Positions 3,767 to 64,000 of a DNA stretch of 64,000 nucleotides are shown one piece after another. Under the pieces are notes generated by a model. The model was given only the letters and a program-made list of their open reading frames with translations. It was not told where the DNA came from and did not search any database. Position 1 is the first letter of the stretch, and each line of letters begins with the position of its first letter. A program made the translations under genes and the position numbers. The DNA is taken from positions 248,001 to 312,000 of the forward strand of contig OY253675.1 of assembly GCA_958009085.1 (NCBI GenBank), read 5' to 3'. Source of the DNA: Protoeuglena noctilucae. Taxonomy: Eukaryota.

Positions 3767-6700
3767 ATGGCATCCGAGTCCTGGATCAGCTTCGACGACG
3801 ACGGCCACGAGGTAAGGGCTGGCCCTGCGCCCCGCGACGCGCAACCGTCGCTGCGCGGCGCCTCGCAACCCTCGTCGCGGCGTCCTCCTCCGCTTTCCGC
3901 ACGCGCTTCCAAAAGCACCCTTTCCGGAACCGAGCGCGCGCCCGAGCGCCGGTGGTGTCCGCGTCACTGCGAAGCGCATGCGTTGCACCTCCCTTTCGCC
4001 TGCAGCCGCGCCCTCCGCCGGAGCCCCGGGCCCCGCCGATCCCGGAATCCTGGGAACGCCAAGCTCCGGGATGGTTCGCGTCCGCGGACGGGAACGGCAA
4101 CGGCCGGATCGCGGGGCAGGAGGCGGTGGCATTCTTCGCGCGCACCGACCTTCCCCAAGACGTCCTCAGGCGAGCCACCTGGGTCCCATTGGCACCCTCC
4201 GCACGGGCATAGCGAGACGTCACCACTCCGCCCACCCCTCGCCACCCCCGCAGCACGATATGGCGCCTGACGAAGGCCGCGGCCGCGGACCCCGCCACCC
4301 CCGGCCTGGACTACGCTGACTTTCTGCGCTACCTCCGCATGGCCGCGTTGGTGCAGCGGGGCATGGCGCCCGCCGACGCCGCCGACGCCGCGGGGTCGGC
4401 CGCCCCAGGCACCCTGCCACCCCCCCGTTTGCGTGGGCTCACCACCACCGGCGCCCCCGTCGGCGCCCCGACCGCCCCGGGCCACCCCGCGCCCGCCGCA
4501 GCGCCCCGCACCCCGCGCGCGGACGTCCCCGTCTCATCTCCTCCCCAGCCCACGCCTCAGCACACCCGCGTCGCATCGCTCTCGGTCGACCCATCCACAG
4601 GCACCCACTCGCGCCCCTCCACCGCCCCATCGGCCCAGGACGCCCGCGCAACCGCAGTGCCGGGATTTGCGTCCGCCGGCCCCACCCCCCGCGCCACGGC
4701 GCCCTCTGCGTCCATCCCACCCTCGTCGGCCATCCCACCGTCATCGGCCATCCCGCCCTCATCATCGACCCCGCCGCCCCGCCCCCGCCCTCTCCACGTG
4801 AACACCGAAGTCCGCGAGCCCCCCGCCATCGACAGCGGCGACGGGGACGAGGGACTGGCTGCCACGCGATCTCTCACGTCCACCCGGGCCCTCAACCGGA
4901 GCGCGTTTACCTCGGGGCCTGCGAGTGAGTCAGGGGGGTTGCTTTTGTGATGATGGTGTGGGGGTGGATGCTGGGGTAGATGGTTAGCAACTGAGTGTTG
5001 ATTAGACTTAAAGAACAGACACTCGATCTTGTTCCCCTCTGTCACCCCTTACACCCCCCCCTTATCACCCTCCCAACCCCCCCCCCCCAGCCATCTCCAA
5101 AACCCGAACTCCCCCTCTTTCGATGTCTCAGTATTCACGTTATTGCAATCCCCCATCCCACGCAGCCATCTCCAAGACCCGGACCCCTCCCCCCGCGTCG
5201 TCGTCGGCCGTCTACGTTTCTGACGACGTCGTGCCAGCCAAGCCCTACTCCCCCATGCTGCCGGCCCACGGGGTCCTGAGGCCGCCCTTTTCGGAGAGAG
5301 TGACGCGGGGCATGCAGCAGGCGAGGATAGATGGTAGTGGGGGTGTTGATAGCATGGAGTGGTTGCAGCAGGTGAGGATAGCAAGTGGGGGTGGTGTTGA
5401 CAGCATGTGGGGTAGGGAAGTGTTACTACATTCACAAGTCTGTCATCACCTTGCTCCTTACTCCTCACCCTCTTTTACCCCTCCCAACAGGCCTTAGGCA
5501 AGTCCCCCCAGCTGTCACTCCTCCCCAACATAGCTAAAGAACTGATAAAAAACTCTCTCGTTATCTCACCTTATCACTCCTCCTCCCCCCTCAACAGGCC
5601 TTAGGCAAGTCCCCCCAGCTGTCGTGCCTGGCGGCGTGCGAGGGGTGTGTGGTGGCGGGGACGGCTGGCAGCGCATCCATGACCGTCTACGCGGGATTGG
5701 ACGCGGCAGATGGGGCCAAGCCACCCCACACGGATGTGGCCAGGCCGCCGGTGGCGGACGCAGACGCTGCCCCGTGTGGGCACGTCATGCCGCCTGCTCC
5801 CGTGCTGTGCATGTACGCGGATGTGGTGCACGGGTGAGGGAGACGAACTGTGTGGTTGGTTGATAGTATGTATGTAGATGAGGTGTGGATGTGAGGAGTG
5901 TGCATGGTTGGTGTGCGTGACTTGCATTCATGATGAAAGCACGTTGCGACTCCTTTTCGAATATTTAGCCGTATCAATACATAATTATATAACACCCATT
6001 CTCCCCTTTCCTCCCAGTGTCATCTGGGCCGGCTTAGAGGACGGCAAGGTATCGTGCTGGCGTGCGGATGCGGCCATGGGCACCGTGCATCTGATACGCA
6101 CCTGGGAGGCATTCAAGAGGGGGGGGGTGTGCAGGTGAGAGATGTGATAGATGTGCATCTGATGGGTGTGCAGGTGAGAAGCCTTCTTACCATCATGGTT
6201 GGCCGCCGCATCGTCACCCCCTCGCCCCATCAAGTTGAATATCGATAGCAATGTGTTAGTATTCCTTTGTCTCCCCAGCATTTCCACCGTGGGCTCCGAC
6301 GGTCGCCGCCTCGTCACCGGCTCCACCTGGGGAGAGCTGCGACTTTGGTCCGCCCCCATTGGCACCGACCCACTCCACGCCAGCCCCACTCCCGCCAACA
6401 ACGCCACTGTCGCCAACACCGCCACTATCGGCGCGGGATATGGCAGCGCGGGGTATGGCAATCCAAACAGCAGCGGTGCGACGGGGGTGGGTGCGGTGGG
6501 TATGGGTGCCATGCCTCCCGGCCCGCCCCTCTACGCCACTGCTACCGCCACCCCCGGCAACGCAAATTCGATTATAAATTCGAATTCGAATTTTGCGGGA
6601 TTGCTGGCGCCCGCCCCCGCGGCCATCGACCTGAAGATGGCCTACGGGGCCCTGCCTCATGATGTGGTGCGCAATGTGGCGGTGCCGAGATGTGGGGGGG

Positions 6701-9700
6701 TGGTGTGGTCGGGGGGGAAGCACAACGCGGCGCTGTGGGACGCGGCGACGGGTGAGTGGATGATAAATGCGAGTGAGTGGATGATAAATGCGAATGGGGG
6801 AAGGAGCGCTTGGCATGGGTTTCGCAACTGGCGATGCTATTAGCTGCTGTTGGGTTGTTGTATGGCAGGCGTGGGTAGCATGATACGCTCGATCATCATG
6901 ATTGATAGTAACGATACTAAAAGTATGTTATATGATAACATGTTTGTGATATGCAAAAACTCTCTTTCCCAACAACACCCCATCTCTCCCTCACTAACCC
7001 CCAGGCCTGTTGCTGGGCACGATATCTCAAGCGGACCCCCCACCCCCCCACGGCGTGGATGTCTCGGTGGGTCTGCCCTTGGATGCTCTGGGAAGAATCG
7101 TTCCGAATCTCTCTCCCGGATTCGGGGCGCTGGAGAGCCAGGAGAGAGACAGGCTGCAGGACATCAAGGCCGTGAGGGCCCGGGTGAGCATGCAGGGGTA
7201 ATATGGATATCGGAGATATCGGAGATATGGACTATCGAGAATTTGCGATGATGGTATATGAATTGTAATTGACAAAGAGTGGCACTGATTCATTTCATAT
7301 TTACTTCGAACTTTTTGTTGATAATTTATGGTACTTGTAATGAATTTTGTAAATTACTGTTAAATTTTATGATTATACTTGCATCATAGTAATACTTTAA
7401 TACTACTTATTATCCTCCCCTTTCCTCAACCCCCCCAGGTGGTGGCGTTCGGCAAGGGCCTGCTGAAGCGCACCAAAGAGACGTTCCGCGGCTCCGGCGG
7501 CCCCACCCCCACGGCCCGGCAGAGAGCGGGGGCGGGGTTCGCTGTGCCCGGTCGCTTTTCATTGGGGGAGCTGGTGGTGATGGAGGCGGTGGGGGTGGAC
7601 TGCGTGTGGGTGGGGTACCGGGGGGGGTCGATTCAGGCGAGTGATTACAGTAATACTTGTAATAGTAATACTATTACTTTTACTAGTATAATTGATGGTG
7701 GTGATGGAGGCGGTGGGAATCCCGGTCGTGCTAAGAACCCTCTCACTGTGTATATACAGTACATGCTTACCAGCAAACTCCACTCCTCCACCCCCACTCA
7801 GATCTTCATGGTGCACGGCCAGCTCCAGTCCCACTCTTCCAATCCACAATCTATATAATCCTATCCTTGATATAATTGATATAATTGTAATTGTACGCTG
7901 ATTACCACCCACTCCTCACCCCCACTCAGATCTTCACCGCCCACGGCCAGCTCCAGTCCCACGCCTCCGTGCTCCTCCCCGACCCCACATCCATCGCCGA
8001 GATATGCGGATGCGTGTGGGTGGGGCAGGCGAACGGCACAGTCACCGTCATGGGGCTGGACGGCAGTGCAGCGGCGTCTTTCACGGCACACGGGGCGCCC
8101 GTGGTGGGGATGTGCCAGGTCGGGCCCATGGTGAGCATTTGACAATATTAATAACATTGTTATTATGATACTTATGTAAAAGTTATGACAGCTTATTGTG
8201 TCTTTCACGGCGCATGGGGCGCCGGTGGTGGGGATGTGCCAGGTCGGGCCCATGGTGAGCGACGGCGTGGTTATTATGATTGCTGTTGTTAATTACCTAC
8301 TGTTGATGGACATTGATAGCGACGTTCACGGATGTGCCAAGTCGGGCCCACGGTGAGCGAGCGAGCGAGCGACTGCATGGTTGTAATTGTTGCTTCATTG
8401 GGTGTAATATAATTATGATTCCAGTAATTATCATATATTACAGTAAAACTATAAAATTCACTCATTCGCGTGCGCCTCGCTCTCTCTCACCCCCCCTGCA
8501 GTGCGTGACGGGTGCAGCGGACGGCTGCATTGCCGCCTGGCCCGCGGCCCTGGGGCGGCCCTCCCTTCTCCCCGATAACAGCGGTAGCGATACCAGTAAT
8601 TGCAATTCCAATGCCAACAGCGCCCACGACGCGTCCATCGCCGTGGATTTGCTGCAATTGGAGGACGGGACGCCCCGGGTGAGTTGTGCGATATTACATG
8701 ATGATACTATTATCATTATTTTATGATGATATAAATATGTTATATTGCTCTATACTATAATACCTGATGTGAAAGTGACTAAGTGGGAGAGGTTGTGTAG
8801 GATTGACGGGTATGCTCGCTCTCACCTACCACCCCACCCCACCCCCCGCAGCCCCCCCCACCCATCCGCCCCTCCCCTCCCTCCCCTCCCCCCGGCCCCC
8901 GCACCGTGAGTGCCCTCCGCGATGCCTGGGCAGACGCTGTCATGCGTCAGTGCATGGGCAACGCGGAGCTGAGCGTGCTGATTGGAACGTGGAACGTGGC
9001 CGAGAAGAAACCGGACTCGGAATCCGTGCAGGCGAGTCGATATTCGTTACTTTTGTAGTTATTTTATAAAATTATTGATAATCACTTTACATGATGATAA
9101 CAGTTAGACCTGGTGATACTAATGGTATTTACAGTCACCATAACAATCCATTATCACTATCAACGCGCACCCCGCAGGCCTGGCTTAGCCCGCGATCGTC
9201 GGGCGCGGACGTGGTGATTGCCGGTCTGCAGGAAACGCAGATGGGCAGCGGTGCCGTCGCTCTGTCCACAGCCATGGAGATGCTGCGGTGAGGCACGAGG
9301 ATGGATAATGGGGATAAGTACGGTAATCATATAATTTATATGATTATTTATATAATTTATTATTATTACATGTGGTGAGCGTATCAACGACCCTTGCACA
9401 CCCCATGGACGCCTCGTCACGCCACGCTCGGTCAAATATGGATACCATATTATGATACTAGGACTATGATATAAGTATGTCAGTTACATCAACAAACACC
9501 CTTTTCCCTTCTCTTTAACCCCCCCCCGCAGCACCAAAGCGGGCGAGCAGGGCAGCGTGGTGGCACAGGAGTGGTGTGCAATCGTCCATGCATCTCTAGA
9601 CACCGGCACCCACGGCCCCTGGGCCCGCGTCGCTTTGCGGCAACTGGGAGGGATCGTGCTGTGCGTTTTCGTGAGGCAGAAGTGGGCGGGCTTGGTCAGC

Positions 9701-12700
9701 AGGGTCGAGACAGCTGCGACGGGGGTGGGCGTGATGGGGGTGGGGGCGAACAAGGGGGCGGTGGCCATTCGGTTCGAGATACTCAGGCGGACGGTGTGCT
9801 GCGTCTGTGCGCACTTCAGCGCCCACCAGGTGAGACGGGTGGTGGGGGGTGTTGGGGTGGGAGTGGGGTGGTAGTGAGGGTGGGGGTGGGGGTGGTAGTG
9901 AGGGTGGGGGTGGGGGTGGCAGAGGGGGTCGCAGTGGGGGTGGCAGTAAGGGTAGCGAGAGTGTCAGTGTGAATGCAATACTATTCAAATTTATCGATTG
10001 ACATATATCAGTATCACTCCCCTCTCTTACAGACCCAGTGGGACAAGCGCAACCAGGATTATGCAACCCTCATGCACCTCACGCGCTTCCACCACGTTTT
10101 GGGCATCGGGGCGGGTATGCCCACAGCACAAAACGCACTGGTGGCGCAGAGGCAGGTCGATCCGCCTGTGGACGACGACTCTTTGGCTGGGAAGCTGGCA
10201 GAGGGGGGTGGGGGTGGTGGTGGGGGTGGTGGGGTGGCGAGTGGAGTGGCGAGTGGGGTTGGTGGGGGTGTGGGTATGGGAAGTGGTGGTGTGGGTGGGG
10301 CGATGAGTGGGGGCACGGCAGGTGGAGCAATGAGTGGGGGAGGTGGGAGTGCGGTGGTGGCCCAGCCGAGTTTCCTGGCGGGGGCGGCGGTGCCGGCGCA
10401 ACAGGTGGGGATCGGGAGGGGTGTGGGTGGGTGGCGCATGGGTGTGGCTTGCTGGGTTTGCTGAGCCATGCATGCTTTCTCATCTTCAATCACGTCCATA
10501 TCTATCACCCCCACTCATCTCCATGTCTATCATTGTTATCTTTTTTGTTATCCATAATCCCCCATTCCAATTTTATCCAATCCAATTCCCCATCTCTCCC
10601 CAGGGTTCCGTCCCTGCCCCCGTGGCCCAGGCCCTCTCGCGTGCCCAGGGCGTGCGTGATGCGGATATCGTGCTGTGGTGCGGGGATTTGAATTACCGAG
10701 TGGACGTTTCATACGAAGAGGCCATGGAGGCTCTGAGGGCTGGGGATATGAGGAGGCTGATGGCCAACGACCAGCTGAGGGGGCAGATGACGGCGGGGAG
10801 CGTGTTCCAGGTGACAAGCAGTACTATTACTATTACTATTACTAGTACTATTACCATTACTTTTATTATTACTACTATTATTACTGTCACTATGACTATT
10901 GCTATCGCTACTAACCCAAATTACCGCTCATCTCACCCCCAGGGCTTCCAGGAGCCCCCCCTGACGTTCCCCCCCACGTACAAGTTCGACAAGAACGTGG
11001 CTGGTTTACTGGCATACGACTCGAGCGAGAAGAGGAGGGTGCCCGCTTGGACCGACCGCGTGCTGTGGAGCGCCACGGCTGCCGACCCGGCCATGGCGGT
11101 CAGGTGAGGGGGGTGATGAGTGGATAATAGTTGGTGCGTAGTATGTGCATGGCTGGGATGTTCAGTCTTCCCTCACTGCCACCCCCACTGCTACCCTATC
11201 ACCACCCCCGCTGCCACCCTCACCCTCACCCACCCCCTTCCCACCTCTCAGGGTCACCTGCAAGTCCTACAGCAGCGTCCCCTCTCTCTCACTCACTCCC
11301 ACCCACTCACCCACTCACCCCTCACCCCTCTCAGGGTCACCTGAAAGTCCTACAGCAGCGTGCACTCTCTCTCACACCCCTCACTGCACCCTCACCCACC
11401 CCCTCTCTCACACCCACCCATTCACCCATTCACCCCCACCCATCCCCCCCCAGAGTCACCTGCAAGTCCTACAGCAGCGTGCCCGACGTCATCGCTTCCG
11501 ACCACAAGCCCGTCTACGCCACCCTATCGCTGACCATGCCCCACGTGGACTTAAGGAGGCAGTCCGCGGCGTTCGCTGCGATATCCAGGCCGCTCTGGCA
11601 CCCCTGTCAGGCGCCGCCAGAACTGACGGTGGCGCCAGAGTCGGTGGTTCTGGCGGCGGCGGCCGAGGGGAGGGCGCTGCAGATCAGGCGAGGATTTGGG
11701 GGTTGGGGGGGAAGGGGGGGAGAAGAGTGGTAAATGAAATGGTGTGCATGTCTTGTTTTTGTCTGCCTGACAGAAACATATATCTTTTACATCACTGTTA
11801 CCAACGGGCATATGGACCATACAGTCAAATCATCAGAAGCATATAGCAATATTACTGTTACTATCAATTAGCAATATTAACCATCATCCATCTTCTCTTC
11901 ATCCCAACCCCAGGAACGCCTCCCCCCAGAGCGTGCGATTTTCCGTCGAGCTCATCCCCGACGACGGTCGAACCAACGCATCCACTTCCACGGTCCCGTC
12001 ATCGATATCGTCGATATCATCTACATCTTTATCCCAATCTCATCCCTCCGACTGGCTGGACGTGTGGCCGGAGGGTGGGGTGACGGGGCCGGGGGAGGAG
12101 GCGCTGGTGATGGTGGCGTACGTGGAGAGGCCGCAGGGGCACAGGTGAGGGCGATACTGTTCATGTACATTTTTGATGTACATTGTTGATATTCATCGGA
12201 TTGTATGATTGTATGTCCATACTGCTGGGGGCCGGGAGAGGGAGGCGCTGCCCACTCCCACTGCCACCCCCACTCCCACTCCCACTCCCACTCCCACTCC
12301 CACCCCACCCCACTCCCACTCCCTCACCCCCAGGCGCACCTGCCGCATCCGCATCACTGCGTTTGGCATCTATGCTGGCGCCTGCCCATCCCAGTCATCT
12401 GCAAGGGTGGTGGAGGTGGCAGTCACGGAGCCGCCTGCCATGGGGCCGGGGCAGGCCAGGCTCTACAGCAGAGACATGGGTGAGGGAGATGAGATGGGGG
12501 TTGGTGGGGGTGGGGTTTAGTGGGGGTGGGGGGTGAGAGGGAGGAGATGGTGGGGGTGGGGCAGGCTCTACAGCAGGGACATGGGTGAGGGAGTGGTCTC
12601 TATGATGAAGATGATAGCGGGAGTGATCTCACTATGATCAAGAGGAGAGAGTAAAGAGAAAAGATGGTAAAGATGTATGGCAGCCTTTGCGAACTGACCG

Positions 12701-13231
12701 CCCCTCACCCTCCACCTCTCACCCACCCCACCCCACCTCACCCAACCCCACTCACCCACCACCCCCACCACCCCCGCAGCCTACGCCCCATCTCCCGAAT
12801 CCATGGGCCTGCACCCCAACCCCGACCCATCCAACCCCGCCCCGCCGCCCGCCTACCAAGACGCGGTGGCGACCCACACGGGTTCAATCCCCGCCAACCA
12901 CCAGCACCCCCATTTCGGGCCTTACCCCCTCCCGCCCCACGCCCCGTCGCCCCACGCTGCAGCCGGTGTGGTGCAAACACACCACCAGGGTGGTTGGGTG
13001 CCCTTTGCTAACGATGAGGCATCGCCACCCACGCATGCCCGGCATGCCGCCCAAGCCCCGACAGCAGGCGCGGGTGCGGGCGGGGGTGCGAGTGGTAGTG
13101 GGGGTGGCGTGGTTGCGCAGAGCTTCGCGCAGCAGAGGGGCGGTGCGGGTGGCAGTGGGAGTGTGGGTGGGAGTGGGAGTGGGAGTGGGGCGAGTGCCAA
13201 GGGCATCACGGAGGACCTTTTGCAGCTGTGA
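3767..13231 (+). CDS. Inositol polyphosphate 5-phosphatase with N-terminal EH (EF-hand) domain, WD40-like repeats, IPPc catalytic domain and C-terminal Ig/MSP-like region (plant FRA3/5PTase12-14 type); about 20 exons
   Basis: Catalytic motifs: WNVAEK (8985), GLQE (9223), [10 protein letters not shown]...CAHFSAHQ (9747-9829), [10 protein letters not shown] (10676), PTYKFDK...[18 protein letters not shown] (10973-11068), SDHKPV (11497). EH-like [34 protein letters not shown] (4070-4168). WD-like [26 protein letters not shown] and [12 protein letters not shown]. Ends ITEDLLQL* at 13231. Confidence 0.88.
10821..10910. repeat. (TAT/TAC)n AT-rich microsatellite in a 5-phosphatase intron
   Basis: gtactattactattactattactagtactattaccattacttttattattactactattattact. 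Confidence 0.8.
12255..12320. repeat. (CCCACT)n hexamer repeat at the 3' end of a 5-phosphatase intron
   Basis: cccactcccactgccacccccactcccactcccactcccactcccactccc just upstream of the acceptor at about 12333. Confidence 0.8.
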
Positions 13232-43145: not shown

Positions 43146-48036
<4,891 letters not shown>

Positions 48037-48274
48037 GTTCAGATCCTTGTCCTCGAACTCCAGGGACGCCTGGCTAGGGACGACGCGGCCAAGATCTCAG
48101 CGCTCGACGCTCGCACTGGTGGGGAGCAGCAGCGCACCCGTCAACGGCTGTCCGGTCGCGAAGCACTGCTAGCGGCACGCAGAGACTCTGTCCCCACCAG
48201 CTCGCCGCGCCTGGGTCCAAGAATCCTCGCAAACTCAACTCGTGACGGTTCCTGTCGTCTTGCCAGAAACCTCA

Positions 48275-51200: not shown

Positions 51201-52280
51201 GCTGGGGCTGCCGACCGGGGCCGCTCGGCGCCCCTGCCGCTCGCGCCGGGGCCGGCGCCGTCGCGTGGCGTCACCTCGGCCGGGACGGCGTGAGAGGCGA
51301 TGGGCCCGGCCCGTGATGCCGGCCGCGCCGTCTGCGGCCGCGGGTGCTCCGGGCTGCGCGCGGGGCTGCGTCCCGAGACCGCTTGGCTGGCGCTTGGCCG
51401 CTCGGCGGGCCCCGCACCGCGCGACCGGTCCTGCCCATCAGCCTTCTTGGTGGCGAGCATGGCGACTCTCGGCAGCTGCCCCAGTGCAAGCTTCTTCTGC
51501 GAGCCCCCAGTCGACAGGTCCCGCTGCGAAGCGCTCCGGGCGGTGAGGACGCGCTCGGCGTCGGCGGCCGCGCGGGCCACCATCGACGAGGAACGTTTGG
51601 GGGACACAGTGGGGCGCGGCGGGGGAGGGGCGGTGGGGGTGGTGCGGCTCGAGCTCTGCTGGGGGCCAGGGCCGGACGGTGCGGACTCCCCGAACGAGAT
51701 GGAGCCACTCTGCGGGGGATGGTGGTAATCCTAGGCATGGTGACAGGGCGGGTGGAAGTTGCATGGGCCGACGGGCGGCATGGGTTCGCATGTCCTAGCG
51801 AGGGTGCGGGTGTGGGCGGCATCGTGAGCGCGGGCGAGATGAGGCTCTCTGCGACGAAGCGCTGTCTCACCTGCGCCGGGCTGCCAGCGAAGCCTGCCAC
51901 TTGGTGGGAGGAGAGGCCCGCCCCGGGCGCAGAGGCCGCGGAGCTCTGGATCGACGACCGGAGGGCCAGCGACCCCGATTTGTTGCTCAGCGGTGCGAAC
52001 GCGCTGCCTCCTTGCGCCGAATCCTCCGCCTTCGCCGAGCTGCGGAGCACGCGGGCGGCAGGCGTTTCGATCCAGGGCGGCATGCGATCTGGGCGGCGAG
52101 CAGCGCGCGACGGCCGCAACGCGCCGATCCGACCCTGCCGTGTCAACAGGATGAACTTACCCGGTCAGAGAGGAGCGCAGGGACCGGGTTTGGCGGCGGA
52201 AGGCGCCGCCATCGTTGTCACTCCGTCGGGCCCCTCCACCGCTCGAATCCCCGAGCAGACGCGCTCCCTCCGAGGCCATG
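48275..52280 (-). CDS. Large low-complexity/coiled-coil hypothetical protein with a 'ELQECTFRPSIN' motif, possibly cytoskeletal or flagellar; start uncertain
   Basis: Spliced segments YESMSELSRQQAEARYRADLASLK, RMNATSKAILRAKM, RERQELQECTFRPSIN, PVFDFATP, RHIERLKLARSHQAEKEAALK, KYDGSTWRPDVTVPVAP. Phase-compatible last exon ESASLRLD* ends at 48275. Confidence 0.5.
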
Positions 52281-53098
52281 CCGCTGCCGTGGCGGAGCTT
52301 CGCGTCGCCGCTTTGCCGTATGCGGTGCGCGACGTGCCGGACGCGAGGCGGTCGCCGGGGTGCAGGACCCTCCCCGCAGCGACACCTGCGTGAAGGAGCG
52401 CGCCTCTGGTGGCGCCGGTCCCGCACAGCTAATCCGGGTTTACTTCCCTGATGCGCAACATGGATCCGATGGGGTCCCCGGCCCTTCCCCAGGCGAGAAA
52501 TTCGGATGGCGACATGCTTGGGGAAAAGGCCCCGGAAAGCGAGCACCAGCGAGGCGCCGAGCACGGCAGCACACGCACCCAACAAGGAGAGGAACCAAAG
52601 CACGCAGAAATCAGGTCTGAGGGGCGAAGGGACGCCGGGGTCAGCGATCCCAGGTGGCTGCATAACATCGACCATGGGTCCCGCCCCAGCCCCACCTGGA
52701 TCGTGTAGATCAAAGCTGAGGCCGGTCGTGCGTGCGAGGGCACGAATGGCGTGCTGGTTTTTCAGGCCGGCTGCAAGTGCGCGCCGGAGCGGGTACAGAT
52801 GATGATCGCGGGGTGGGAGCAGCCAGCTACCGCTGTTTTTAACCACTGAGGATCGAAAGGCCACGTTGCGGGAAAAACCTACCGCCAGAAAACACAGCTG
52901 CTCGTTCGAACTCGTCATTTCAGCAAGTCGGTGGCTCGCAACCAGCACCTCTTCTCCACGGTCGCCCTGGTGGCACGTTTGCCGGGCTCTTCCCGTGTCG
53001 AGGGGGTCGCGGTTCGTGCGAAAAGAGAACACGGGCGTGTGGGCGCCGCCGGGCCTCACCCCTGCAATCCATAGCCGTCTCGCTGGGGACTGTCAAGC

Positions 53099-56000
53099 AT
53101 GCGGATATTTTGCTGGACCTATCTCGGTGAGCAGCGCGGGCCATCGCACGGCTCGCGCCGCAGCGGGTGATGCTGGGCGTGCCGCGCCTCTCCTCGGGTC
53201 GCCGCTGTCCCCAGCTGCAAGCTTTGACCGATCTCCATCGTGCCGCTGCTCCAGGGACGGCGCTCGCCGTGGACGCGAGCAGCAATACCCGCCCCAGCAG
53301 CACGGCAACCGTCGCCTGGCTCAAGCAGCACATCGCCGCTTCCCACCGTGCGAGATTCCCTGACGAGGTAAGCGTCGACAACCTTTCGGGAGGCTCGGCC
53401 GGGCAATGTATCGCGCGCCGAGGGGAATTGCGGGGCATCCTGCCACGTCTTGTACACCGCCCCGCAGCGCCGATGCTGCGTATGTTTGACCGCGCGGACA
53501 GTGACACGCCTTCCTATGTCGCTATCTTCTTTCCAGGATGATCTGGACCCTTCCCGCGCCGTGCTCGTGATTCCCGGCCGCGACGACACGCTGGCCCCAT
53601 ACAGCCCCGGCTTCGCCCTCCTGGACGACCTGCCGTTCCTCCACATCCTCAGGTTCGTTTTATTGCTTGATTTGTCATATGTTCGCGTGGCTTGCGCCCG
53701 TGGAAGCCTCGGCGCCGACCCGCGGCCGCCACTGCAGCTGGCAGCTACGTCAATATTTCCATCCGCCGAGCCGCTGGAGCCTCCGCCGCATCCTCGCAGG
53801 GACGACGACACGGTTTACTTCTTGCCGGGCCCCGCGAGCGCCCTGAAGACCTTCCTGGCTCCCCGCCACCACGCCATCCCCGTCCCGGCCCCGGCCGCCC
53901 ACCTCGCCCTCCCTCCTCCGTCCCACCTGCGAGCGCATGCGCCGCATCCCCGTGACCACACCCACGATCCCGCGATCGTGAAGCGAGGCCGACCGGCTCC
54001 GCCAGAGTCGCCGAGGGATCATGATGCGAGGGAGGGGTCCGCGGCACTGGCAGTGCCATTGCCAGAAACCGCCTCTGCGAAGCGCGGGGGGCAGCTGGCG
54101 AACGGCGGGGACGTTGAGGGGGCTGAGAGGGGCGAGGGCGAGGGTGCGGGTGCTGGGAGAGGCGAGGGGGAGGCGGGGGCGGGTCAAGCGGTGAAGAGGA
54201 GGGTGCGGGTTGATGATGGGGGACAGGCTGATGTGGGACGAAAGATTGATAGGAGACAGAACGATGGGGTGTCAAAGGATGTGAAGGAGAAGCGAGGGGC
54301 GAAGGAGGGTGTTGGGAAGGGCGGAGCGGGTGGGGAGGTGGGCAGGGCTGTGGAGGTGTCTAAGGCAAGCGAGGCATTGGCGAAGGGGGAGGTTAGGGGC
54401 GGGGCTGGGAAGAGTTCTGCTGAGGGTGGGAAGGGTTCTGTTGAGGGTGGGAAGGGTGGTGGTGGGAAAGGTGCTGTTGAGGGTGAGAAGGGAGCTAGCG
54501 AGGGTGACAAGGGAGCTAGCGAGGGTGGCAAGGGTGCTGGAGCGAAAGTGGCTGCCGAGGGTGGGAAGGGTGGGGTTGAGACGGGGGCTGCTGACGGTGG
54601 GAAGGGACTCGGTGGGAAGGGAGTTGCTGAGGCTGGGAAGGGCGCTGTTGAGGGCAATAAGGGAGTTGCTGAGGGTGGGAAGGGCGCTGCTCAGGTCACA
54701 GTGCCAGTGCCAGCGGCACCGCCTGTGCCGTCACAGCAGGCGATGTCATCTTCTTTCGAGTCATCGTCAAATGACGACACGAAATCACCTAGACGATCGC
54801 AGTCCGGCGATTCGCCATCTGGCGCGTCGTCAGCCAGCCGCGGCGCCTCGCCGGCAGGAGGGGGTGCGATGGGGGGTGCGATGGGGGGCAAAGTGGCTGG
54901 TGGAGAGGCTATGGGCGAGGCTGTGAGCAGAGCTGGTGGGGAGTTGGTGACGGCAAATGACGAGGGCTTGATGGTTAAGGGGGGCGCTGCGAGCAATTCG
55001 TCGACGCGCTCATCGTCGTTATCATCATCATCCTCCTCGTCGTCATCATCTGACACCTCGCCTACTAGTCGCTCATCTGACAGCACCAGGAGCCGTCGCG
55101 CGAGCGGGGCCTCGTCTGGGAGTGGCAAGCGAGATGGGGCGAAGGCTGATAGTATCAGTGGGGGTGGGAGTGGCAAGCGAGATGGGGCAAGGGCTGATAG
55201 TGGGAGTACGAGTGGGAGTGGCAAGCCAGCAGAGCGAGGGACAAAGCAAGCTGGGTCAGGGTCAGCGACTGACAGTGGGAGTGGGGGTGGCAAGCGAGGG
55301 CACAGGTCGACTGCAGACAGTGGGAGCGACCGTAGATCTGGGTCGAAGAGTAAGAGTGGGAGCACTACTATTGACAGACGGTCTGGGTCCACTAGCACTT
55401 CTAAGAGTGGGAGGGGGAGGGGGAGTGGGAGTGGGAGTGGAAGTGGGGGGAGTGGCGAGGGTGGGTCTGGGGACGAGGTGTCTGACTTGCCGCCACTGAG
55501 GGAGCTGCTGACCATGCACAAGCAGAGCATGCGCAACAGGTGAGCCGTTGTGGTATATGGAGCGGCTGTGTGTATGGAGGGCAGCTGCTGACTGACTATG
55601 TGCAAGCAAACCCATTCATGCACACCGTCACTGACGGATGTGTGCCCTCTTCACGCACAGCTTTCCTTTTTTCCAACGCACCCCTCTCCGGATTCGAACG
55701 CAGGACCACCGAGGCCCTCCCAGCCAGCTCCACCCCCGCCCCCGCAACCACCGCTGCCCTCGCCAGCCCCGCCCCCACCCCGCACCCACCATCGCGCCCG
55801 GTCCCTGACATCGTCGTGCCAGCAACGCCAGAGCCGGTGCCAGCGACGCAGGCGGTGGACGGCGGGGAGGTGGTGGAAAAGGGGAACAGCCGGGGATTGA
55901 ACGGTAACCTCCCTGCAGCGGCCAATGGGCATGGTGGAAGGCATGGGGAGGGGGATGACGATGAGTCGGACGATGGGCCTGCGAGGAAGCGACCGGGGTC

Positions 56001-56490
56001 GACAAAGGGCAAACGCAGTCGCGACGGCAAGGGTGGGGATGGGAGGGGTGGGGATGCGAGGGGTGGCGATGGGGATGCTGCCAAGAGCCCTGCTAAGAAG
56101 GCGCGGAGTGGTGCGGATGGGGCCGGCAAGACAAGCGGAGTAATAGTGGGGAGTGCCAATGGAGCTGGGGCTGCTGATGGGGTGGGTGGGGCAGGTGGCA
56201 AGGGTGCGCCTTTGAAGGGTGCGAGTGCGGGTGGCGGTGCGGGTGCGGGTGTCAGTGCGGGTGCAGGGGCCTCCAAAAAAGGTGCTGGGGTTGGCGAAAG
56301 GGGCAGAAGGGGCGGAGAGGGTGGGGCGGGGGACAGAGGGGCGAAGGGGCGGGGTGCAGGGGCGATGACTGGGGTGGCCGATGGGGTGGTGCCAGGGAGA
56401 CGCAAGGGTGCGAAAAGGGGGGTTGCTTCTGAGAAAGAGCCCGCGGCTGTTGCCAAGCGGACCCGGACGAACATGAAAGCGGCAGGATAG
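53099..56490 (+). CDS. Hypothetical protein with a small folded (ubiquitin-like?) N-terminal domain and a long G/S/K-rich disordered tail with NLS-like motifs
   Basis: Phase-compatible exons MRIFCWTYL|GTALAVDASS...TVAWLKQHIAASHRARFPDE|DDLDPSRAVLVIPG...FALLDDLPFLHILR|DDDTVYFL. Then GGKGA-type repeats, a poly-Ser tract, PARKRP, SPAKKAR and RRKGAKR. Stop TAG at 56490. Confidence 0.6.
54400..54690 (+). repeat. Coding tandem repeat encoding (A/V/S)EG(G/E/D/N)KG(A/S/V) heptapeptide-like units
   Basis: Repeated gagggtgggaaggg variants translating as SAEGGKGSVEGGKG...ASEGDKGASEGGKG...VAEGGKGAA. Confidence 0.75.
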
Positions 56491-56987
56491 AGACGGTGGC
56501 TTTCATGATGCCACCTTATTGCCGGTGTCGGTGCAGGGGTGCTTGAGATGTCAGTGGGTTGCTCCTGTTGTTTTTGTTGGCAGATTGGGGTCGCGACAGG
56601 CGTTTTTGCTATGGTGGGAGCGAGCTTTGAAAGCATGCTGGGGCATGTCTTTGAATGTCGGCATGCAGGCGCACAAAGTCTCACAGTCACAGCAGAGCGT
56701 CAGTGTGCTGGTCAGAGCGGCGTGGGCCAATGAGGCCTTCAAAATCTACCCCTTATAATCACTTGCACAGTGAACACACACACCCATCCCGCCTCCCATA
56801 CCTACACTGCTTGTCCCCACCCACCCCCCTTCACTTCCCACCCCACCAACCTCCACAACCCCTCTCAAATATTCTTCCATCTCCCTTTCACTTGACCCAC
56901 CCCCTCAGTTGTCTTCCTTGGCCCGCCGGTGCTTGACCAGTAACCCGCCGGTACTTGATCAGTAACCAGTCACAACCACCCACCCCC

Positions 56988-59080
56988 TCAGTTGTCCTTC
57001 TTGGCCCTCCTGTACTTGCTCGGCTTGCGCCCCGCCGCCGCCGCCTCGGCCGCCTCCTCCATCGCACGCTCCTCCTCCTCACCCGCATCACCACCCGCGT
57101 TGTCATCACCACCATCGCCGCCCTTCTCGCTCTCCTTCGCTGCACCCCCGTCGCCCAGGAGCTTCTCGTTAGCCTTGGCCTTGGCCTCCTGGTCCCTGGC
57201 CTTCTGTAGATGGGGAATAGTTGTAAGGGGCATGAAGATAGTATGACTGAGGTACCGGCAGTACAGACACACAGCACCCTTCCGAGGTAAGCTAGCCCAG
57301 CCATCCCTCCCTCACAGCCACTCCACCCACCTAGTCGTCCCAGACCTTCTCACAATCTCATGACCAATACAACTCCCAACTGTCACCTTGTCGTCCCAGG
57401 CCTCAAAGTCATCATGATTTATTACAACTCCCCAACCCTCACCTTGTCGTCCCAGGCCTTCTGGTCCCGGTCGTTCTCTCGGCTGTCCTTAGTCAAAAAG
57501 ACGCCGTTCATGACCACGATGAAGAAGACCATGATGCCGCTGACCAGGATGCCGAACTCGATGTTCTTCATGACCTGCAAAGAGAGGGGTTGGGTGGTGG
57601 GGTGAGTGGGGATGAGTCAGCAAGCGATGTTCTATGATAAGCTCTGTTGGAGAAAGGGCGGTGTGGGGGTGAGTCAGCACCCGTCGGCGTGTCGCCAGGC
57701 GTGGTCAACAGTACACCTGCATATCGCCATGCCGTGTGTCGCAATATGAAGTGAAACACAGCCGTTACGCACCGAGGCGTATTTGAGGAAGACAGGGTCC
57801 TCCCTCAGCTGGTTGTTGGTGGTCATCAGGAAGGCAATCTCCTCCACGCTCAGCTTCACGCCGTTGTTCTTTTCGATGTAGCGGCTCAGCAGGGCCTGGG
57901 CCAGGACGTAGTAGATGCGGCGGTCCTCCCGGAGAAGAAAATTTAAAACATACGTGGCCTGGGGATAGGGGGGGGGGGGGGGGGGGCGAGGGGGTTGATG
58001 ATGGCACAATTGACGTGTGGCCTGTCGTGGGCAAGGGCGGCGACGGGCGATGAGCTGCGTGGTATACATGACAGGACAGGGCCGCATGCCAGTATCAACG
58101 ACAGCCAGGGTCCAGATGCTGTCGGGGCTGTGGCGATGGGCCAAGGGGCGCAGGTGTTGCCGAGGGCGAGGTGGCCCCGCTAAGCAGGCTCGGGTTCAGC
58201 AGGCTCGGGCTCAGCACGCGCCTGGAAGAGGAAGGCTCCGAGGAAGACGTTGAGGATGGTGAAGATGATGATGGTGGTGCGCTCGCCGCGCCCGACGCGG
58301 TTGCCCGCCACCTGCGGGCACGACGTCAATGCTTTTTTCACCCCATGGACGTTCTTGCAAGCCAGCGGAGAGATGTTTGCATAGAACCGTGTTTAAACTA
58401 CCACGTCAGCGCGCACCTGGCCGGTGAGGTAGGCGCTCCCGCCCGCCATCGCGCAGAGGAACATGAGCATCTGGCTGGGCGCGTCGCGGGTGAAGATGTA
58501 TAGAGATCCCAAGTAGGAGGCGTAGACGACCACCCACACCCTGCGAGGGAGGGGCGGGCGAGGGCATGCGGCGCCTCCCGCGCGCCGCGGCGCGCCACAG
58601 GCCCGCCGGCCCCGCGGTTGTCACCACTGCACGTAGGTCAGGTATTTCAGGTGGCGGCGGTGCATGGCCATCCACTGCGGGACAGAGGGCCGCGGGGAGC
58701 CGTTGCGGGCGCCGCGAAGGCTCGCGCGGGCGCACGCAGAACGGCAAGAATCTCAGGGGGCGCGGGGAGCCACGGCCTCGCGCGCGTGACCCACGCCGCG
58801 CCGGCCAGGGACGGGCCACGCATTCTTCGTCCCCTTCGCATGCCGGCTGCGCAGTCTCAAGGTGCTCTAAGGGTGGCGGCCGGCGAAAAGGCGGGTAACG
58901 GTGGCAGGGCCGACCTTGTACCGGCTCTCGATGACCATACGGTTCTCTGCGTCCGTCCCATCGTTCGTAGGCATGCCCATGGAGCGGGCGACGTTCACGG
59001 TCTCGTTGTACATCATCGCGCCCCTCGGATCGACGTCGAAGAAAGGGTCCGGGGCTCGGACTGGGCAAGCGGAGTCTCGC
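56988..59080 (-). CDS. Hypothetical multi-pass membrane protein with acidic/charged C-terminal tail; start uncertain
   Basis: Hydrophobic exons WVWVVVYASYLGSLYIF, MLMFLCAMAGGSAYL, TIIIFTILNVFLGAFLFQ and IEFGILVSGIMVFFIVVMNGVFL. Ends RKPSKYRRAKKDN* at 56988. Confidence 0.65.
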
Positions 59081-59409: not shown

Positions 59410-62400
59410 ATGAACTTCGACGCGTTTGACGCCTTCAGCACGTGGTTCCGGGGGCCACGGGCCAAGGACGACAATGGCGGGGGGTCCCGGGCGTCCTCCG
59501 TCACCGGTGAGGTCCTGTCCCGCCGGGCCCGCGCACATCGTTCCTCGCAGCCCCGCGGGGCCAGCGGGGCTACGAGCCCGGCGTGGATTCCCAAGGGCGC
59601 CCCGTATCGCCCGCGGGGCGAGCCGGCCGGCGCGGATGCCGTGCAGTCTTATCCAGAGTCGCAGATGCCGCGCATCGGCTGTTCGCGCGCGATCGCTCCT
59701 CGCTCGGCCCGCTCGCGCAGGTGCGTCAACTGTCTCGGTCCCCACGGAGCTCCCGGACGACCCGCAGACGCTCAAGACGATCATCAAGTGAGAAGCCCGC
59801 GGGAGGAGGAACGCGCGGTCGTGGATACATCGCATCGCCGCTTCCGCGGGCGGACGGTCCGCGCGATGGGTGCGAGTGGCCGGGGGAGGCACTGCGATGA
59901 TGATAGCGAACCCCGTCCCCGCCGCAGGCGCCTGAAGCAGGAGAACGCCACCCTCAAGTCCCGCACGACCTCCTACGTCTCCCGTGGGGCGCTCCTGCGC
60001 GATGGCCTGCTGTACATGGAGACCGACACCTCCCGTGAGCCCGCCGGCCCCGCGCCTCGGCCTCGCGCCCGCCGGGTCGCGCCCGCCGCGAGGACCTCGA
60101 GTGGGCTCGGAAACGCACAGCTGCGCTGCGCTCTTCCCCGCAGTCTTCTTCTCCGAGTCGTGGGTGCTGCGTTACTTCGTCCTGTCCGGCGACACGCTGG
60201 TGTACTACGCCGACGAGGGCGCCGAGAAGAGCAGCACGCCGCTCGGTTTCAAGCGCGTCGGAGGCACGCGTGTGCTCGTCGAGGGGCCCAAGAAGCACGG
60301 GCACTACTGGGCTTTCTTCGTCGATGCGGACGCCGGTGAGAGAGGCCTCTGCGCGACTCGCGAGCGGCGATCCGCCGCGGAAGGCGATCTGGCAAAGTGT
60401 CATGTAATTGTCTTCGCAGAGACGCCCGTGCGGCTGTCGACGGAGTCGAAGTCGGACCTGGACGGCTGGGTTCGCGCTTTGGAGCGCATCGGGTGCAAGG
60501 TGGAGTTCATGAGCGACGAGCTGCGGCCTCCCGCGCGGCAGTCGCGACGCGGGATCGCCGCGGCAGGAGAGCCGGAAGGCAAGAGACCCTTGGCGCAGCA
60601 TTGGGTCGGCGACGGTCCTTGCCTGTCCGATGCGCATCCTGCGGCCTCCAGTCGTCCGTTGCAAACCTCCCACATGAGCTAATCGCATCCATCGATCGCT
60701 CAGAACTACACACCCGCAGGTCTGGACCGCACGGGCTCGTCCTCGCGGCGCCAGAGCCTGGGCCAGCGCCGGGGTCACGCCGACGAGGTCGCCAACGCCA
60801 CGCCCGTGCTGCCCCGCACGCCCGTCAAGGAGAGCCCGGCGAAGGGCGGCGACAGCGCGCGCGGGGAGCCGGGGGACGGTCCCGGTGGCGCGGGCAAGGG
60901 AGGGGCGGGGGAGGGCGACAACGCGACGACGTCGGCCGTGACAATCGAGGAGACGGTACAGGCGAGTGGCTGTGGCTGTCGTGACTGGTGATGTGATTGA
61001 AAACGTGTGATAACCATAATCAGGTGAAAAGATGGTGCAGGCGAGTGGCTGTGGCCGCAGTTGACACACACGCATCTGCCGGTATCGTGTCCGACCATTC
61101 TATTGTCAGTCGCCTTATCGTTTTCATCTCACCGTGTTCCCTGTCGCAGAGGCACAAGCGCAAGCGGGGTGACATGCGTGGCAGCACGCCCCTCCACCGC
61201 CGGTCGGTCTTCTCGCCCCTCTCCTCCGAGGTGAGACCGAGAGAGCGAGCGAGTATTTAAGAGTGCAGTGCAACGTCTTTGCTCGTATGGGCGTGTATCA
61301 TGCATCATTATGATGCCTCTGTGACAGCGTAACAGGGTAAGCCATATTGCTGGCGCTGGTTGCTAGCTACCAGCACTTGCTCCTCTATCGGCCACCCACC
61401 CCCACCCAACCCCGCAGCGCACGGCCGAGCTCAACACCGACTGCTCTTACCTACACCTCCCTCACATTTCACTTACACCACTTCATAACACTTCACCCAC
61501 CCCTCACCCCCACCGCACAGCCGAGCTCAACAACGACTGCTATCGTATCAGCTATCACACGATATTCGAATAATCTTTTCACCCAACCCCAACCCCATCC
61601 ACCCCCAGCGCACGGCCGAGCTCAACACGGAGGGCCTCGTCAACCTCTGCGCCGTGGTGCTCCTGGCCGCCAACTTCCGCCTCATCCTGGAGAACATCCG
61701 CAAGTACGGTCTGCTGTCCAAGCCATTTGAGTGGCTGCGCATCACGGAGGTCCACCCAAGGCTCATGGCGTCGTGGCTGTCGCTGCCGACGCTGGCCATG
61801 GGGTCGCTGATGGTCGAGGTGAAAGTGGGATCAGGGATCTCTGTATTGTGTTCATGTCGTCAGCAACACTACTGCTACCCCACTGCTAGTGGAGGGGAGC
61901 AGTGGTGTGTTGGGAGGTGGATCGTTCCTGTTTTAGATCGTGGTGTTGCTGCTGGTATAGGTGAGCAGTGGTGGTGGTGATGGATTTGCGTCCTGGCTGT
62001 CGCTGCCGACGCTGGCCATGGGGTCGCTGATGGTGGAGGTGACTGGTAGGGTCAAAGGGAGGCCACGCCACAGTATATTGCCCCCCTCACTGATCAAACC
62101 ACAATCACCCCCCCACCCCCCCCAACCCCTCCTACCGGCCCCCCTCACCCTCACCCCTCAACCCACCCCTCACCTCCTCCCCCAGAAATGGGCCGCCTTG
62201 CGCCTGTCCAAGGAAAAGGGCAATAAGCGCGCCCGCCGCCTCACGGAGACCCTCACCGTCACCTGCCAAGCGGTGCTCACCACTTTGACCGTGGCACTGC
62301 CCTGCCTGGCCATGGCGTTCGAAAAGGGAGACCCCGCCATCCTCGCCATGCCGGGCTTCTTCCTCATTTCTTCCGCTGTCGTGCTGTGGATGAAGCTGGT

Positions 62401-63612
62401 CAGCTACGCGCACTGCTGTGCGGACTGCCGGGTGCTCAGGCGGCAGGGGGCGGCGTTGCCGGGGGAGCCGGGGTGCGAGGCGACGCTGGAGGACGTGCCG
62501 GCGGGGCAGGGGACGTACCCGGACAACCTGACGGTGCAGAACATGGTGAGGGGTGGTGGGGGTGTGAGGGGGTAGGGGGGTTGGGGAATGGTTGGAGCAG
62601 CTTGAATACTACTCAGCTATTACCCATCCCATCACTCTCAACCCCCGCAGCTGTACTTCATGGCCGCCCCCACGCTCACCTATCAGGTTGCGTACCCCCG
62701 CACCCCCAAGATCCGGTACAAGTGGTTGGCCAGGCGTGTGGCCGAGGCAGTCGTGACGGCCGCCCTCCTCGTCTTCCTCATCCAACAGGCGAGGAAAGGG
62801 TGTGAAGTGGTTGTTATTGTATAACCATTGATGATGATTGGTTATAGTAAGGGTGGATGGATACAAGATATGTATAAGTTGCAACTTAGTACTATGTAGC
62901 ATGCGAGTGGGGCTGTCGCGTGGTCATTATAACAGCAATCAATCCTTTTTTGTCTTCCCGCAGTACATCGAGCCGGCCGTGTCCAACTCCCTGGTCCCCT
63001 TCGACCAGATGGACCTTTCGCTGATCGTGGAGCGCATCCTCAAGATATCCCTCCCCATGCTCTACGTCTGGCTCACGGGGTCTTATTTGCTGTTCCACCT
63101 TCTGCTCAACATCTCCGCAGAAGTGCTCAGGTGAGAGAGGGATGGGGGGTGTGTTGGGTTGAATAATAAAGCAATGATTAATTTAATCGAGTCTAGTTAC
63201 TATAATATCAATTATCTAAATTGTAATGATAAAATTGTTGATATAATATAAACAATATGTATTTTATAAACATAAATTTATCAAAAAGACAGTGACCATT
63301 CCCTACCCCCTTGGCAGGTTTGGCGACCGCGAGTTCTACCGTGATTGGTGGAACGCCCACACGCTCGAGGACTACTGGCGTTTGTGGAATATGCCCGTGC
63401 ACCGCTGGATGCTCCGCACCGTCTACTTCCCGTGCATGCGCGCGGGGCTGGGCAAGTCCGGGAGCGTGTTCGCGGTGTTCTTCGTTTCGGCCGTGTTTCA
63501 CGAGCTGGTGGTGGGGGTGCCGCTGCGGCTCTTCCGAGCGTGGGCGTTTTTGGGGATCATGTTCCAGATCCCCCTCATCATGCTCACGCAGTGGATGGAC
63601 GCGCGGCTCAAG
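59410..63612 (+). CDS. DGAT1: Diacylglycerol acyltransferase type 1 (MBOAT) with N-terminal pleckstrin-homology domain; 3' end beyond the window
   Basis: HRRSVFSPLSSE, GLVNLCAVVLLAANFRLILENIRKYG, WMKLVSYAH, YPDNLT, YFMAAPTLTYQ, QQYIEP, FGDREFYRDWWNA, YWRLWNMPVHRW, FVSAVFHE (catalytic His). PH-like SWVLRYFVLSGDTLVYY...VRLSTESKSDLDGWVRAL at 60158-60480. Confidence 0.95.
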
Positions 63613-63862
63613 GTGGGACGCATGGACTGGATATCGATAGTAATGATAGTAACGATAGTATTGATGGTAATAGTCGTGGTGATTTTCTTATCATGCTCAC
63701 GCAGTGGATGGACGCCAGGCTAGGGGAGGCGGGGTGGGGGCGGTGATGGTTATAGTAATAGTGCTGGAAGGAAGAGTACCTTTTCTGCAGTCTTACATGA
63801 CCTCATAAGCGCTGCTGCACCCCACGCCACCCACCCCACCCTACTTATCGCAGTTCGCACCC

Positions 63863-64000
63863 CACCTCACCTCACCTCACCTCACCTCACCTCACCTCAC
63901 CTCACCTCACCTCACCTCACCTCACCTCACCTCACCTCACCTCACCTCACCTCACCTCACCTCACCTCACCTCACCTCACCTCACCTCACCTCACCTCAC
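63863..64000. repeat. (CTCAC)n pentanucleotide microsatellite running off the window end
   Basis: Perfect ctcac repeats from about 63863 to 64000, inside a DGAT1 intron. Confidence 0.95.

Follow-up and report, generated by a model that had tools for sequence, protein, structure and literature searches.

In the 64,000-nucleotide (nt) stretch of Protoeuglena noctilucae contig OY253675.1 analyzed here (positions 248,001 to 312,000 of the forward strand; hereafter the window), the edges of coding sequences have repeatedly been copied into the non-coding DNA beside them. We found 23 families of such repeats, whose displaced copies we call echoes, in four genes: 11 in a gene for an inositol 5-phosphatase with a beta-propeller, six in CDC48, two in a small membrane-protein gene (the 57-kb membrane gene) and four in DGAT1. 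In every family that is not a microsatellite, one copy sits on the coding edge and the other or others in the adjoining intron or 3' untranslated region (3'UTR). We think it probable that error-prone local duplication at coding/non-coding boundaries left the echoes as neutral scars, a short tract having been copied from a template and joined through a spacer. The repair mechanism, the neutrality of the copies and selection as the cause of their sharp ends are parts of this reading that we infer. The genes were mapped from Pfam matches on open frames and from homology, and the four that carry echoes are as follows:

Inositol 5-phosphatase with beta-propeller, 4.3-13.2 kb (4258-13231), plus strand
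CDC48, 43.1-47.4 kb, minus strand
Small membrane-protein gene (57-kb membrane gene), 57-58.7 kb, minus strand
DGAT1, from 60.7 kb, plus strand

The copies are 16-75 nt long, 82-100% identical and all in direct orientation, at offsets of 21-220 nt (median 95). Exon ends were copied downstream and exon starts upstream. Thirteen families involve donors, six acceptors and two stop codons, and two are exon-internal; apart from these last two, the source copies abut the junction (gap of 0-15 nt), and the echoes lie 35-185 nt from it, inside introns that already exist. Three copies are present at each of four sites (8076/8200/8330, 11249/11332/11451, 57328/57368/57423 and 61395/61505/61588), and at 8076/8200/8330 and 57423/57368/57328 the farther copy is shorter or more decayed. 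When the window was compared with itself by BLAST at a threshold of at least 35 bits, 48 direct high-scoring segment pairs versus no inverted ones were observed at offsets of 20-250 nt, and there were no direct pairs at offsets of 400-1000 nt. The original prediction, made by reading the sequence, was of about 18 such cases in four genes, and our counts extend it; the lengths, orientation, upstream and downstream rule and triple copies that it described were likewise found. Its link to splice junctions holds for most families, but not for the two stop-codon echoes (43091/43146 and 56895/56978), the two exon-internal ones (7572/7696 and ~12085/12228) or the pair at 6752-6793, which has no exon part. 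The families in the 5-phosphatase gene (plus strand) are:

Family R, echo at 5088-5106 upstream of the true acceptor copy at 5163-5181; offset 75, span 5088..5187
Family M, exon end and GC donor at 5313-5356 (exon end 5320), repeated at 5364-5407; offset 51, a whole-unit tandem
Family A, acceptor echo at 5478-5516, true copy at 5585-5623 (exon start 5598); offset 107
Family B, donor copy at 6125-6140 (exon end 6134), echo at 6164-6179; offset 39, with an 11-nt patch in the spacer copied from the exon, 68 nt upstream
Family C, 6752-6793, a perfect 21-nt tandem pair from the donor GT onward, without an exon part
Family D, exon-internal 22 nt at 7572-7593 (43 nt from the donor), intron copy at 7696-7717; offset 124
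Family E, acceptor echo at 7780-7834, true copy at 7909-7962 (exon start 7930) made of 21 nt of intron and 33 nt of exon; offset 129
Family F, donor copy at 8076-8136 (exon end 8130), echoes at 8200-8260 and 8330-8360 with graded decay
Family N, span 11244..11484, acceptor echoes at 11249-11282 and ~11332-11365, true copy at 11451-11484 (exon start 11454)
Family Q, exon-internal at ~12085-12106, intron copy at ~12228-12250
Family P, donor copy at 12457-12488 (exon end 12479), echo at 12562-12593; offset 105

Exon 5 of the same gene (6393-6460, plus strand) contains two adjacent in-frame tandem duplications, with periods of 18 and 15, in low-complexity sequence rich in Asn, Ala and Gly. The families in the other three genes are:

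CDC48 c1, minus strand, donor copy at 45353-45401, intron echo at 45274-45322; offset 79
CDC48 c2, minus strand, exon tail at 44969-44991, echo at 44875-44897, lacking the 12 nt before its GT; offset 94
CDC48 c3, minus strand, acceptor copy at 44668-44697 (first exon base 44691), upstream intron echo at 44769-44798; offset 101
CDC48 c4, minus strand, donor copy at 44447-44480, echo at 44353-44386; offset 94
CDC48 c5, minus strand, donor copy at 43471-43512, echo at 43400-43441; offset 71, whole-unit type
CDC48 c6, minus strand, last codons and stop at 43146-43166 (stop 43146-43148), 3'UTR echo at 43091-43111; offset 55
57-kb gene K, minus strand, donor copy at 57423-57459 (last exon base 57443), echoes at 57368-57403 and 57328-57350; 55-nt units
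57-kb gene L, minus strand, end of the coding sequence and stop at 56978-57018 (stop 56988-56990), 3'UTR echo at 56895-56935; offset 83
DGAT1 G, plus strand, GC-donor junction at 60951-60976 (exon end 60961), echo at 61030-61055; offset 79
DGAT1 H, plus strand, acceptor echoes at 61395-61445 and 61505-61541, true copy at 61588-61628 (exon start 61609)
DGAT1 I, plus strand, donor copy at 61768-61822 (exon end 61818), echo at 61988-62042; offset 220, 96% identity, unrelated 165-nt spacer
DGAT1 J, plus strand, exon tail at 63577-63602 (exon end 63612), echo at 63690-63715; offset 113

The intron set used for all counts comprised 42 introns from gene models that were checked for frame. Introns of CDC48 were defined by the GT-AG joints that RNA contigs show, these contigs coming from two independent metatranscriptome studies, and its spliced product is uninterrupted over ~807 residues. 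The 5-phosphatase model has 18 introns, of which 16 are internal and the other two are the first and the last, and is stop-free over 1,173 codons; the models of DGAT1 (7 introns) and the 57-kb gene (5 introns) are both stop-free as well. Introns of the genes in the window, which is 64% G+C over its 64 kb, are ~90-380 nt long. A hidden Markov model exon finder was tried and left unused for the counts, as it scored exons and even echoes as coding-like, over-called GC-rich DNA and did not separate the strands. In a scan of the junctions, 51-nt donor windows and 57-nt acceptor windows were compared with the rest of the same intron, the other 41 introns serving as the null. Thirteen of the 84 junction windows equaled or exceeded the top score (20.5) of 3,444 null comparisons, which excludes chance, and 11 donor and 8 acceptor windows beat all 41 of their own nulls. 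No local direct repeat of at least 31 bits was found before position 5,088 (RPL14) or within 13,737-43,091 (the ABCB pair and DPH1), just as had been noted for these genes, and the junction scan revealed no echoes in a five-intron gene adjoining CDC48. The genes without echoes are:

RPL14, near 3 kb, minus strand
Two tandem ABCB transporters, 17-31 kb, minus strand
DPH1, near 33 kb, minus strand
Unnamed five-intron gene directly upstream of CDC48, 48-50 kb

Repeats of this kind could in principle be produced by assembly or polishing, and short-read contigs do break at the 55-nt repeat near 61803. However, contigs from a separate marine metagenome carry the same structure: one covers 43765-45998 with 4 differences and no gaps, and another covers 59572-61803 with no differences, so that CDC48 echoes c1-c4 and DGAT1 echoes G and H exist in wild DNA. 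Isolate contigs match 43000-49826 and 49895-57986 exactly, and the copies within families differ from one another by substitutions. Across public sequencing runs, the stretch was present in an isolate and near-unchanged in marine metagenomes and metatranscriptomes. The concern over an artefact that accompanied the original prediction is therefore put to rest by independent metagenome DNA, and we regard such an origin as virtually inconceivable.

The RNA contigs of the two studies also indicate which copy is spliced. Among the joints listed, all five echo-bearing CDC48 junctions are joined at the copy contiguous with the exon, which is the site used in the dominant RNA (contigs drop rare isoforms). 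The extra GT and AG sites left behind look intact, as expected of the decoy-like sites that had been predicted: 12 of the 13 donor echoes retain GT or GC, and nine have the layout of a recursive site, with AG directly before the donor motif inside the intron. The echoes might therefore be selected as splice elements, either as decoy donors recruiting U1 or as AG/GT recursive sites for removal of the intron in two steps, and it is consistent with this that the exon-derived part is far better preserved than the surrounding DNA and that similarity often ends directly after the donor motif. We nonetheless consider selection of this kind unlikely. Retention of a 2-nt site in 12 of 13 cases is what 92% identity predicts, and an AG before the GT is merely the exon-end consensus, expected by descent. 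Splicing offers no reason for echoes of stop codons or of exon interiors, the echoes follow no regular position, length or offset, none of the RNA joints listed falls at an echo, and many long introns of the same genes are without echoes.

At a mean length of 264 nt, the 16 echo-bearing introns exceed the remaining 26, with a mean of 175 nt, by roughly one offset (Mann-Whitney p = 2e-4), indicating that ~95 nt of intron was added per event. The claim that local direct duplication has lengthened introns and acted repeatedly at the same junctions is supported. Echoes lengthen introns and record intron growth, not intron birth; no introns bounded by two exon-edge copies or newly made by duplication were seen in the window. 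G+C content was rejected as a mark of echo-bearing introns (0.53 vs 0.55, p = 0.5), and offsets show no preference for multiples of three (6/11/9 modulo three).

Of 574 exonic sites compared between exon and echo, 33 differ, distributed 8/6/19 over the three codon positions; 22 of the differences are synonymous and 11 are not, one of the 11 being a stop. At codon positions 1 and 2 together, 14 of 381 sites differ (3.7%), and overall the exon-derived part of the pairs is ~4-10% diverged. Judged from sequence comparison, this codon pattern fits an unconstrained echo beside an exon that drifts synonymously. The pair 45274/45353 in CDC48 bears on where the changes fell. Environmental RNA contigs carry exon variants at 45391, 45393 and 45394, and those at 45391 and 45394 equal the echo bases at the matching sites, accounting for two of the four differences in the pair. 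This suggests either a change in the exon rather than in its echo, or an echo derived from a different allele. In a more general form of the latter, a broken exon end would be extended on the homologue of a diverged allele or strain, with a like exon and an unrelated intron, and then end-joined, giving an exon edge and a foreign intron head before the resident copy. Such recombination would cover a near-identical exon part with a conserved donor motif followed by unrelated DNA, and the synonymous majority among the differences and the two environmental variants are in line with it. However, GC-rich third positions and later synonymous change in the exon would also give an excess of synonymous differences. 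None of the DNA contigs listed shows a diverged haplotype, and the exon-internal copies and triple arrays are left unexplained; we find this origin highly doubtful.

The original prediction described the duplications as tandem, which is accurate for about a quarter of events and inaccurate for most, where an unrelated spacer separates the copies. Clean whole units, in which the unit equals the offset, make up ~6 of the 23 families: 5313/5364 (51 nt), 6752-6793 (21 nt), 43400/43471 (71 nt), the 55-nt units at 57.3-57.4 kb and the 83-nt unit at 11.2 kb. In the other families, the DNA between the copies (19-165 nt) has no recognizable homology to the sequence past the second copy. Reading the sequence alone, most events appear to be a short templated copy plus a spacer and not a clean tandem duplication. 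A possible, though not a likely, alternative is that all began as plain whole-unit tandem duplications of 40-220 nt across the junction, whose low-complexity intron half decays fast by slippage and indels, while the exon-derived half decays only by point changes and wholly intronic duplications vanish through the same fast turnover. The five or six whole-unit families are what this would produce, and the introns are largely cryptically simple, with arrays of short units. A weak likeness between spacer and flank also exists in the direction that tandem duplication predicts: global-alignment z values against shuffles were -1.2 to 3.3, with a mean of ~1.3 over 15 events versus ~-0.3 in the other direction (averaged by hand), and collinear patches of 9-11 nt are kept in four families (F, c5, H and c4). 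Moreover, with ~95-nt units and ~175-nt introns, ~70% of tolerated duplications would straddle a junction.

Three observations argue against plain tandem duplication. Since echoes are only 3.7% off at codon positions 1 and 2, the intron halves of a whole-unit duplicate should be ~90% alike, yet most are unalignable. The clearest case is 61768/61988, which combines an echo of 96% identity with a 165-nt spacer of complex sequence; only 143 nt of intron follow this echo, leaving no room for a second copy of the spacer. Lastly, the exon part is at most 0.56 of the offset in 19 families (by hand, from coordinates), whereas a uniform distribution up to 1 would be expected (~2e-5, by hand). Direct 8-mers common to the spacers and their neighborhood numbered 62, versus 30 in control regions. 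Inverted 8-mers in the spacers showed no excess once one G-rich/C-rich case was set aside, and snap-back templating by polymerase theta was rejected as the main route, as there were no inverted local copies.

Many introns were also observed to combine a 5' half rich in G and T with a 3' half rich in C and A, the two being able to pair end to end, and the array at 9.8 kb is an inverted match of the one at 12.3 kb. We considered whether hairpins of intron ends stall forks at junctions, and rejected this because the folds of three introns gave non-significant z values of -1.7, +0.8 and -1.4 versus shuffles. The end-pairing introns are:

43750-43929, minus strand
9837-9953
12251-12323
46686-46800

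We propose that the neutral scars we favor would arise as follows. A break or stalled fork in or beside a coding edge would be handled by error-prone repair, which would re-copy a tract of 16-75 nt in direct orientation, usually joining it via a spacer of 19-165 nt. Events in the interior of an exon would be lost unless in frame (compare the tandem pairs of exon 5, with periods of 18 and 15), and events at an edge would be tolerated only where the exon remained joined to one entire edge, donor, acceptor or stop signal included. The second copy of the edge would then be stranded ~100 nt off in the intron or 3'UTR, the spliceosome would stay with the exon-contiguous site, and the intron would gain ~95 nt per event. 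The condition that one complete edge survives would make copies end past the donor motif and stop echoes include the stop; many copies do stop shortly after the GTGAG donor motif, 5-9 nt inside the intron. The lower number of acceptor echoes than of donor echoes (6 versus 13) would follow if an extra upstream AG is less tolerable. The decayed farther copies in triple arrays fit repeated events at a live junction, and the exon 5 tandem pairs and the intronic pairs of 9-33 nt show that duplication is common here. The repair route itself is suggested by analogy with the small duplications known at staggered breaks, as these are described in PMC8355091.

Confinement to coding edges was examined by sliding 51-nt windows through the interior of the 42 introns (1,210 windows, ~171 of them independent) at the threshold of the junction scan. 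There was no independent match, the sole matches being microsatellites and echo-to-echo matches within triple arrays, and the contrast between 13 of 84 junction windows and 0 of 171 intronic windows is significant (Fisher p = 2.8e-7). Wholly intronic, contiguous tandem pairs of 9-33 nt do occur, so general slippage is present and what is confined to boundaries is the 40-220-nt, spacer-bearing type. An ABCB intron, in a gene without echoes, contains a perfect 19-nt tandem pair with an acceptor-like motif (30940-30976, minus strand), which is young and contiguous. The link to boundaries is not specific to splicing, as two of the 23 families are at stop codons and two are exon-internal.

Several findings weigh against neutral scarring as we describe it. 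A position-blind process should leave wholly intronic pairs, and the null model offered with the original prediction, in which only junction-spanning or intronic duplications survive selection, does not fit as stated, because about half of the pairs would be expected to be wholly intronic and none of those in the 42 introns is. In a placement model that kept the length and offset of each event, allowed the copy anywhere in the intron with the source on either side, and counted exon overlaps of at least 8 nt, the mean chance of exon overlap was 0.47, and 24 of the 25 copy events observed overlap an exon. Multiplied over all 25 events, the individual chances give 5e-10 (which is not the exact figure for 24 of 25); if intronic pairs were half as detectable, the value would be ~2e-5 (0.64 per event for 24 events, a hand estimate). 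The model can be saved only on the assumption that coding DNA is where lesions begin, or else that copies within introns decay much more quickly. The distribution is also very uneven: ~19 kb of sequence in four genes contains 23 families and the 29-kb stretch with the ABCB pair and DPH1 contains none, and the five-intron gene beside CDC48 is echo-free as well. The spacers match nothing else in the window. Finally, RNA contigs leave room for low-level use of echo sites, so it is by inference that we call the echoes neutral.

With considerable reserve, we also entertain a reading in which duplication is targeted to coding/non-coding boundaries, with lesions at exon edges repaired by a short copy plus filler, and is a main engine of intron growth in a lineage whose relative carries the 5-phosphatase gene without introns. 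The boundary lesions might, just as tentatively, be nicks coupled to transcription or splicing, or be caused by fork stalling where a GC-rich exon meets a simple-sequence intron. If boundary targeting were true, the AG/GT echoes would be ready-made recursive or alternative sites.

A metagenome scan for relatives gave 5 loci, and the sole useful relative was L001, a metagenome contig of 76% G+C whose protein P0002 is the closest relative found for the 5-phosphatase (69% identity on the query exon). There the gene (L001 998-4735) is a single uninterrupted frame of 1,246 codons without introns, versus 18 introns here. The contrast of 18 introns and none is explained either by gain in this lineage or by loss in the relative. 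An intron-borne, introner-like element with long target-site duplications would account for the arrangement of copy, insert and copy, and the intronless gene of the relative would then reflect many gains here, although losses in the relative would serve equally. We judge such an element very improbable. The spacers have no family likeness in the window, where no long-range likeness among spacers and introns was found beyond microsatellites and the ABCB paralogues, and there are no inverted local repeats. The duplications are 16-75 nt and variable, against 3-5 nt in introners (PMC11282704), and the echoes lie inside existing introns, none of which they created.

Several further features of the window were noted. 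GC replaces GT at 7 of the 42 donors (~17%), far more than the ~1% of introns with GC donors in most eukaryotes, and the GC donor of DGAT1 at 60951/61030 is itself echoed. Two candidate organisms do not fit the window: one has 0.45 introns per gene (PMC9481584), and in the other ~60-65% of donors are GC (PMC4028052). AT-rich islands (at most 39% G+C in 31-nt windows) are concentrated in introns of the 5-phosphatase gene, mid-CDC48 and DGAT1, and many are made of runs of purine-purine-T triplets; introns elsewhere in the window are G+C-rich. Unannotated DNA contains tandem arrays, and the window ends in a (CACCT) microsatellite. The positions of these features are:

GC donors: 5321, 7637, 9032, 11688, 57959-58221 (minus strand), 60962 and 62789
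AT-rich islands: 5000-12700, 44700-45600 and 62800-63800
Tandem arrays: 54403-54695 and 55117-55226, with a period of 36/21 repeated ~7-15 times and a 48-nt unit repeated 2.3 times
(CACCT) microsatellite: 63858-64000, ~28 units

In RNA contigs of the two studies, the first exon of CDC48 is joined to the neighboring upstream gene over a GT-AG gap of 600 nt (47405-48004, minus strand). Read-through splicing, a transcript shared by both genes or an intron in the 5'UTR could each account for this joint; a contig over two genes is no proof of one transcript. Most exons of the ABCB pair are 80-90% alike, and in addition the block at 17050-17572 is 99.8% identical to that at 24263-24785 over 523 nt, and 20253-21270 differs from 27714-28731 by 3 mismatches in the first ~960 aligned positions (20253-21212). 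The near-identical blocks point to recent gene conversion between the paralogues. We had considered the pair as a clock for intron versus exon decay, but it was uninformative, with ~1 kb near-identical through that conversion.

To our knowledge, the growth of introns and the source of intron DNA are still poorly known. The window provides a record of intron expansion in which blocks of ~95 nt were added 25 or more times in 19 kb, each datable against its own exon. The tolerance of at least 13 intact duplicate donors is a testable clue to how the spliceosome chooses its sites, and if the restriction to boundaries is mutational and not an effect of visibility, it would point to a boundary-linked source of DNA breaks. 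On a practical level, gene predictors and read mappers will mis-place junctions at echoes.

The pattern was compared with known systems. Introners are transposon-derived introns that form families of similar copies with target-site duplications of 3-5 nt, according to PMC11282704. The present case resembles them in occurring in a marine alga, in the many apparently young introns and in the exon duplicate beside intronic DNA, and differs in that the window has no element family and no terminal inverted repeats, and that the duplications vary from 16 to 75 nt. Recursive splice sites and fungal twin introns, as outlined in PMC12403724 and PMC8469720, likewise juxtapose AG and GT inside an intron, but the sites here are copies of exon edges and show no sign of stepwise removal. 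In the model of Rogers, tandem duplication of an AGGT-bearing exon segment can make an intron, the vertebrate example in PMC3265369 being ATP2A1. The duplicated AG/GT leaves the mRNA unchanged there as here, and in the nine donor echoes that recreate AG/GT the stretch between the GTs is formally an intron; however, the duplicated segment in our genes straddles an existing intron, the RNA joints span the whole of it, and no new intron results.

A lesion like those described here is known from human FGG, where a 403-bp tandem duplication of the exon 8-intron 8 junction comprises exon end, donor and intron head; according to PMC9052919, the extra donor is used, the gene fails and the change is pathogenic. 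In the window, by contrast, the dominant splicing is correct despite the presence of at least 13 duplicated donors, implying that the site contiguous with the exon is strongly preferred. A further counterpart is an established class, small tandem duplications of <100 bp that arise from staggered double-strand breaks by fill-in (by Pol alpha-primase) and end joining (PMC8355091). The echoes share with it direct orientation, copy size, local range and recurrence, and about a quarter of them are head-to-tail; they differ in that most carry an unrelated spacer of 19-165 nt and in that all such events are at a coding edge. In the full-text literature searched, we found no account of coding edges copied densely, and with spacers, into the introns beside them. 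Overall, the kind of mutation is known; what is new in that literature is how dense the copies are, their spacers, the many duplicated splice signals that are tolerated and the confinement to boundaries.

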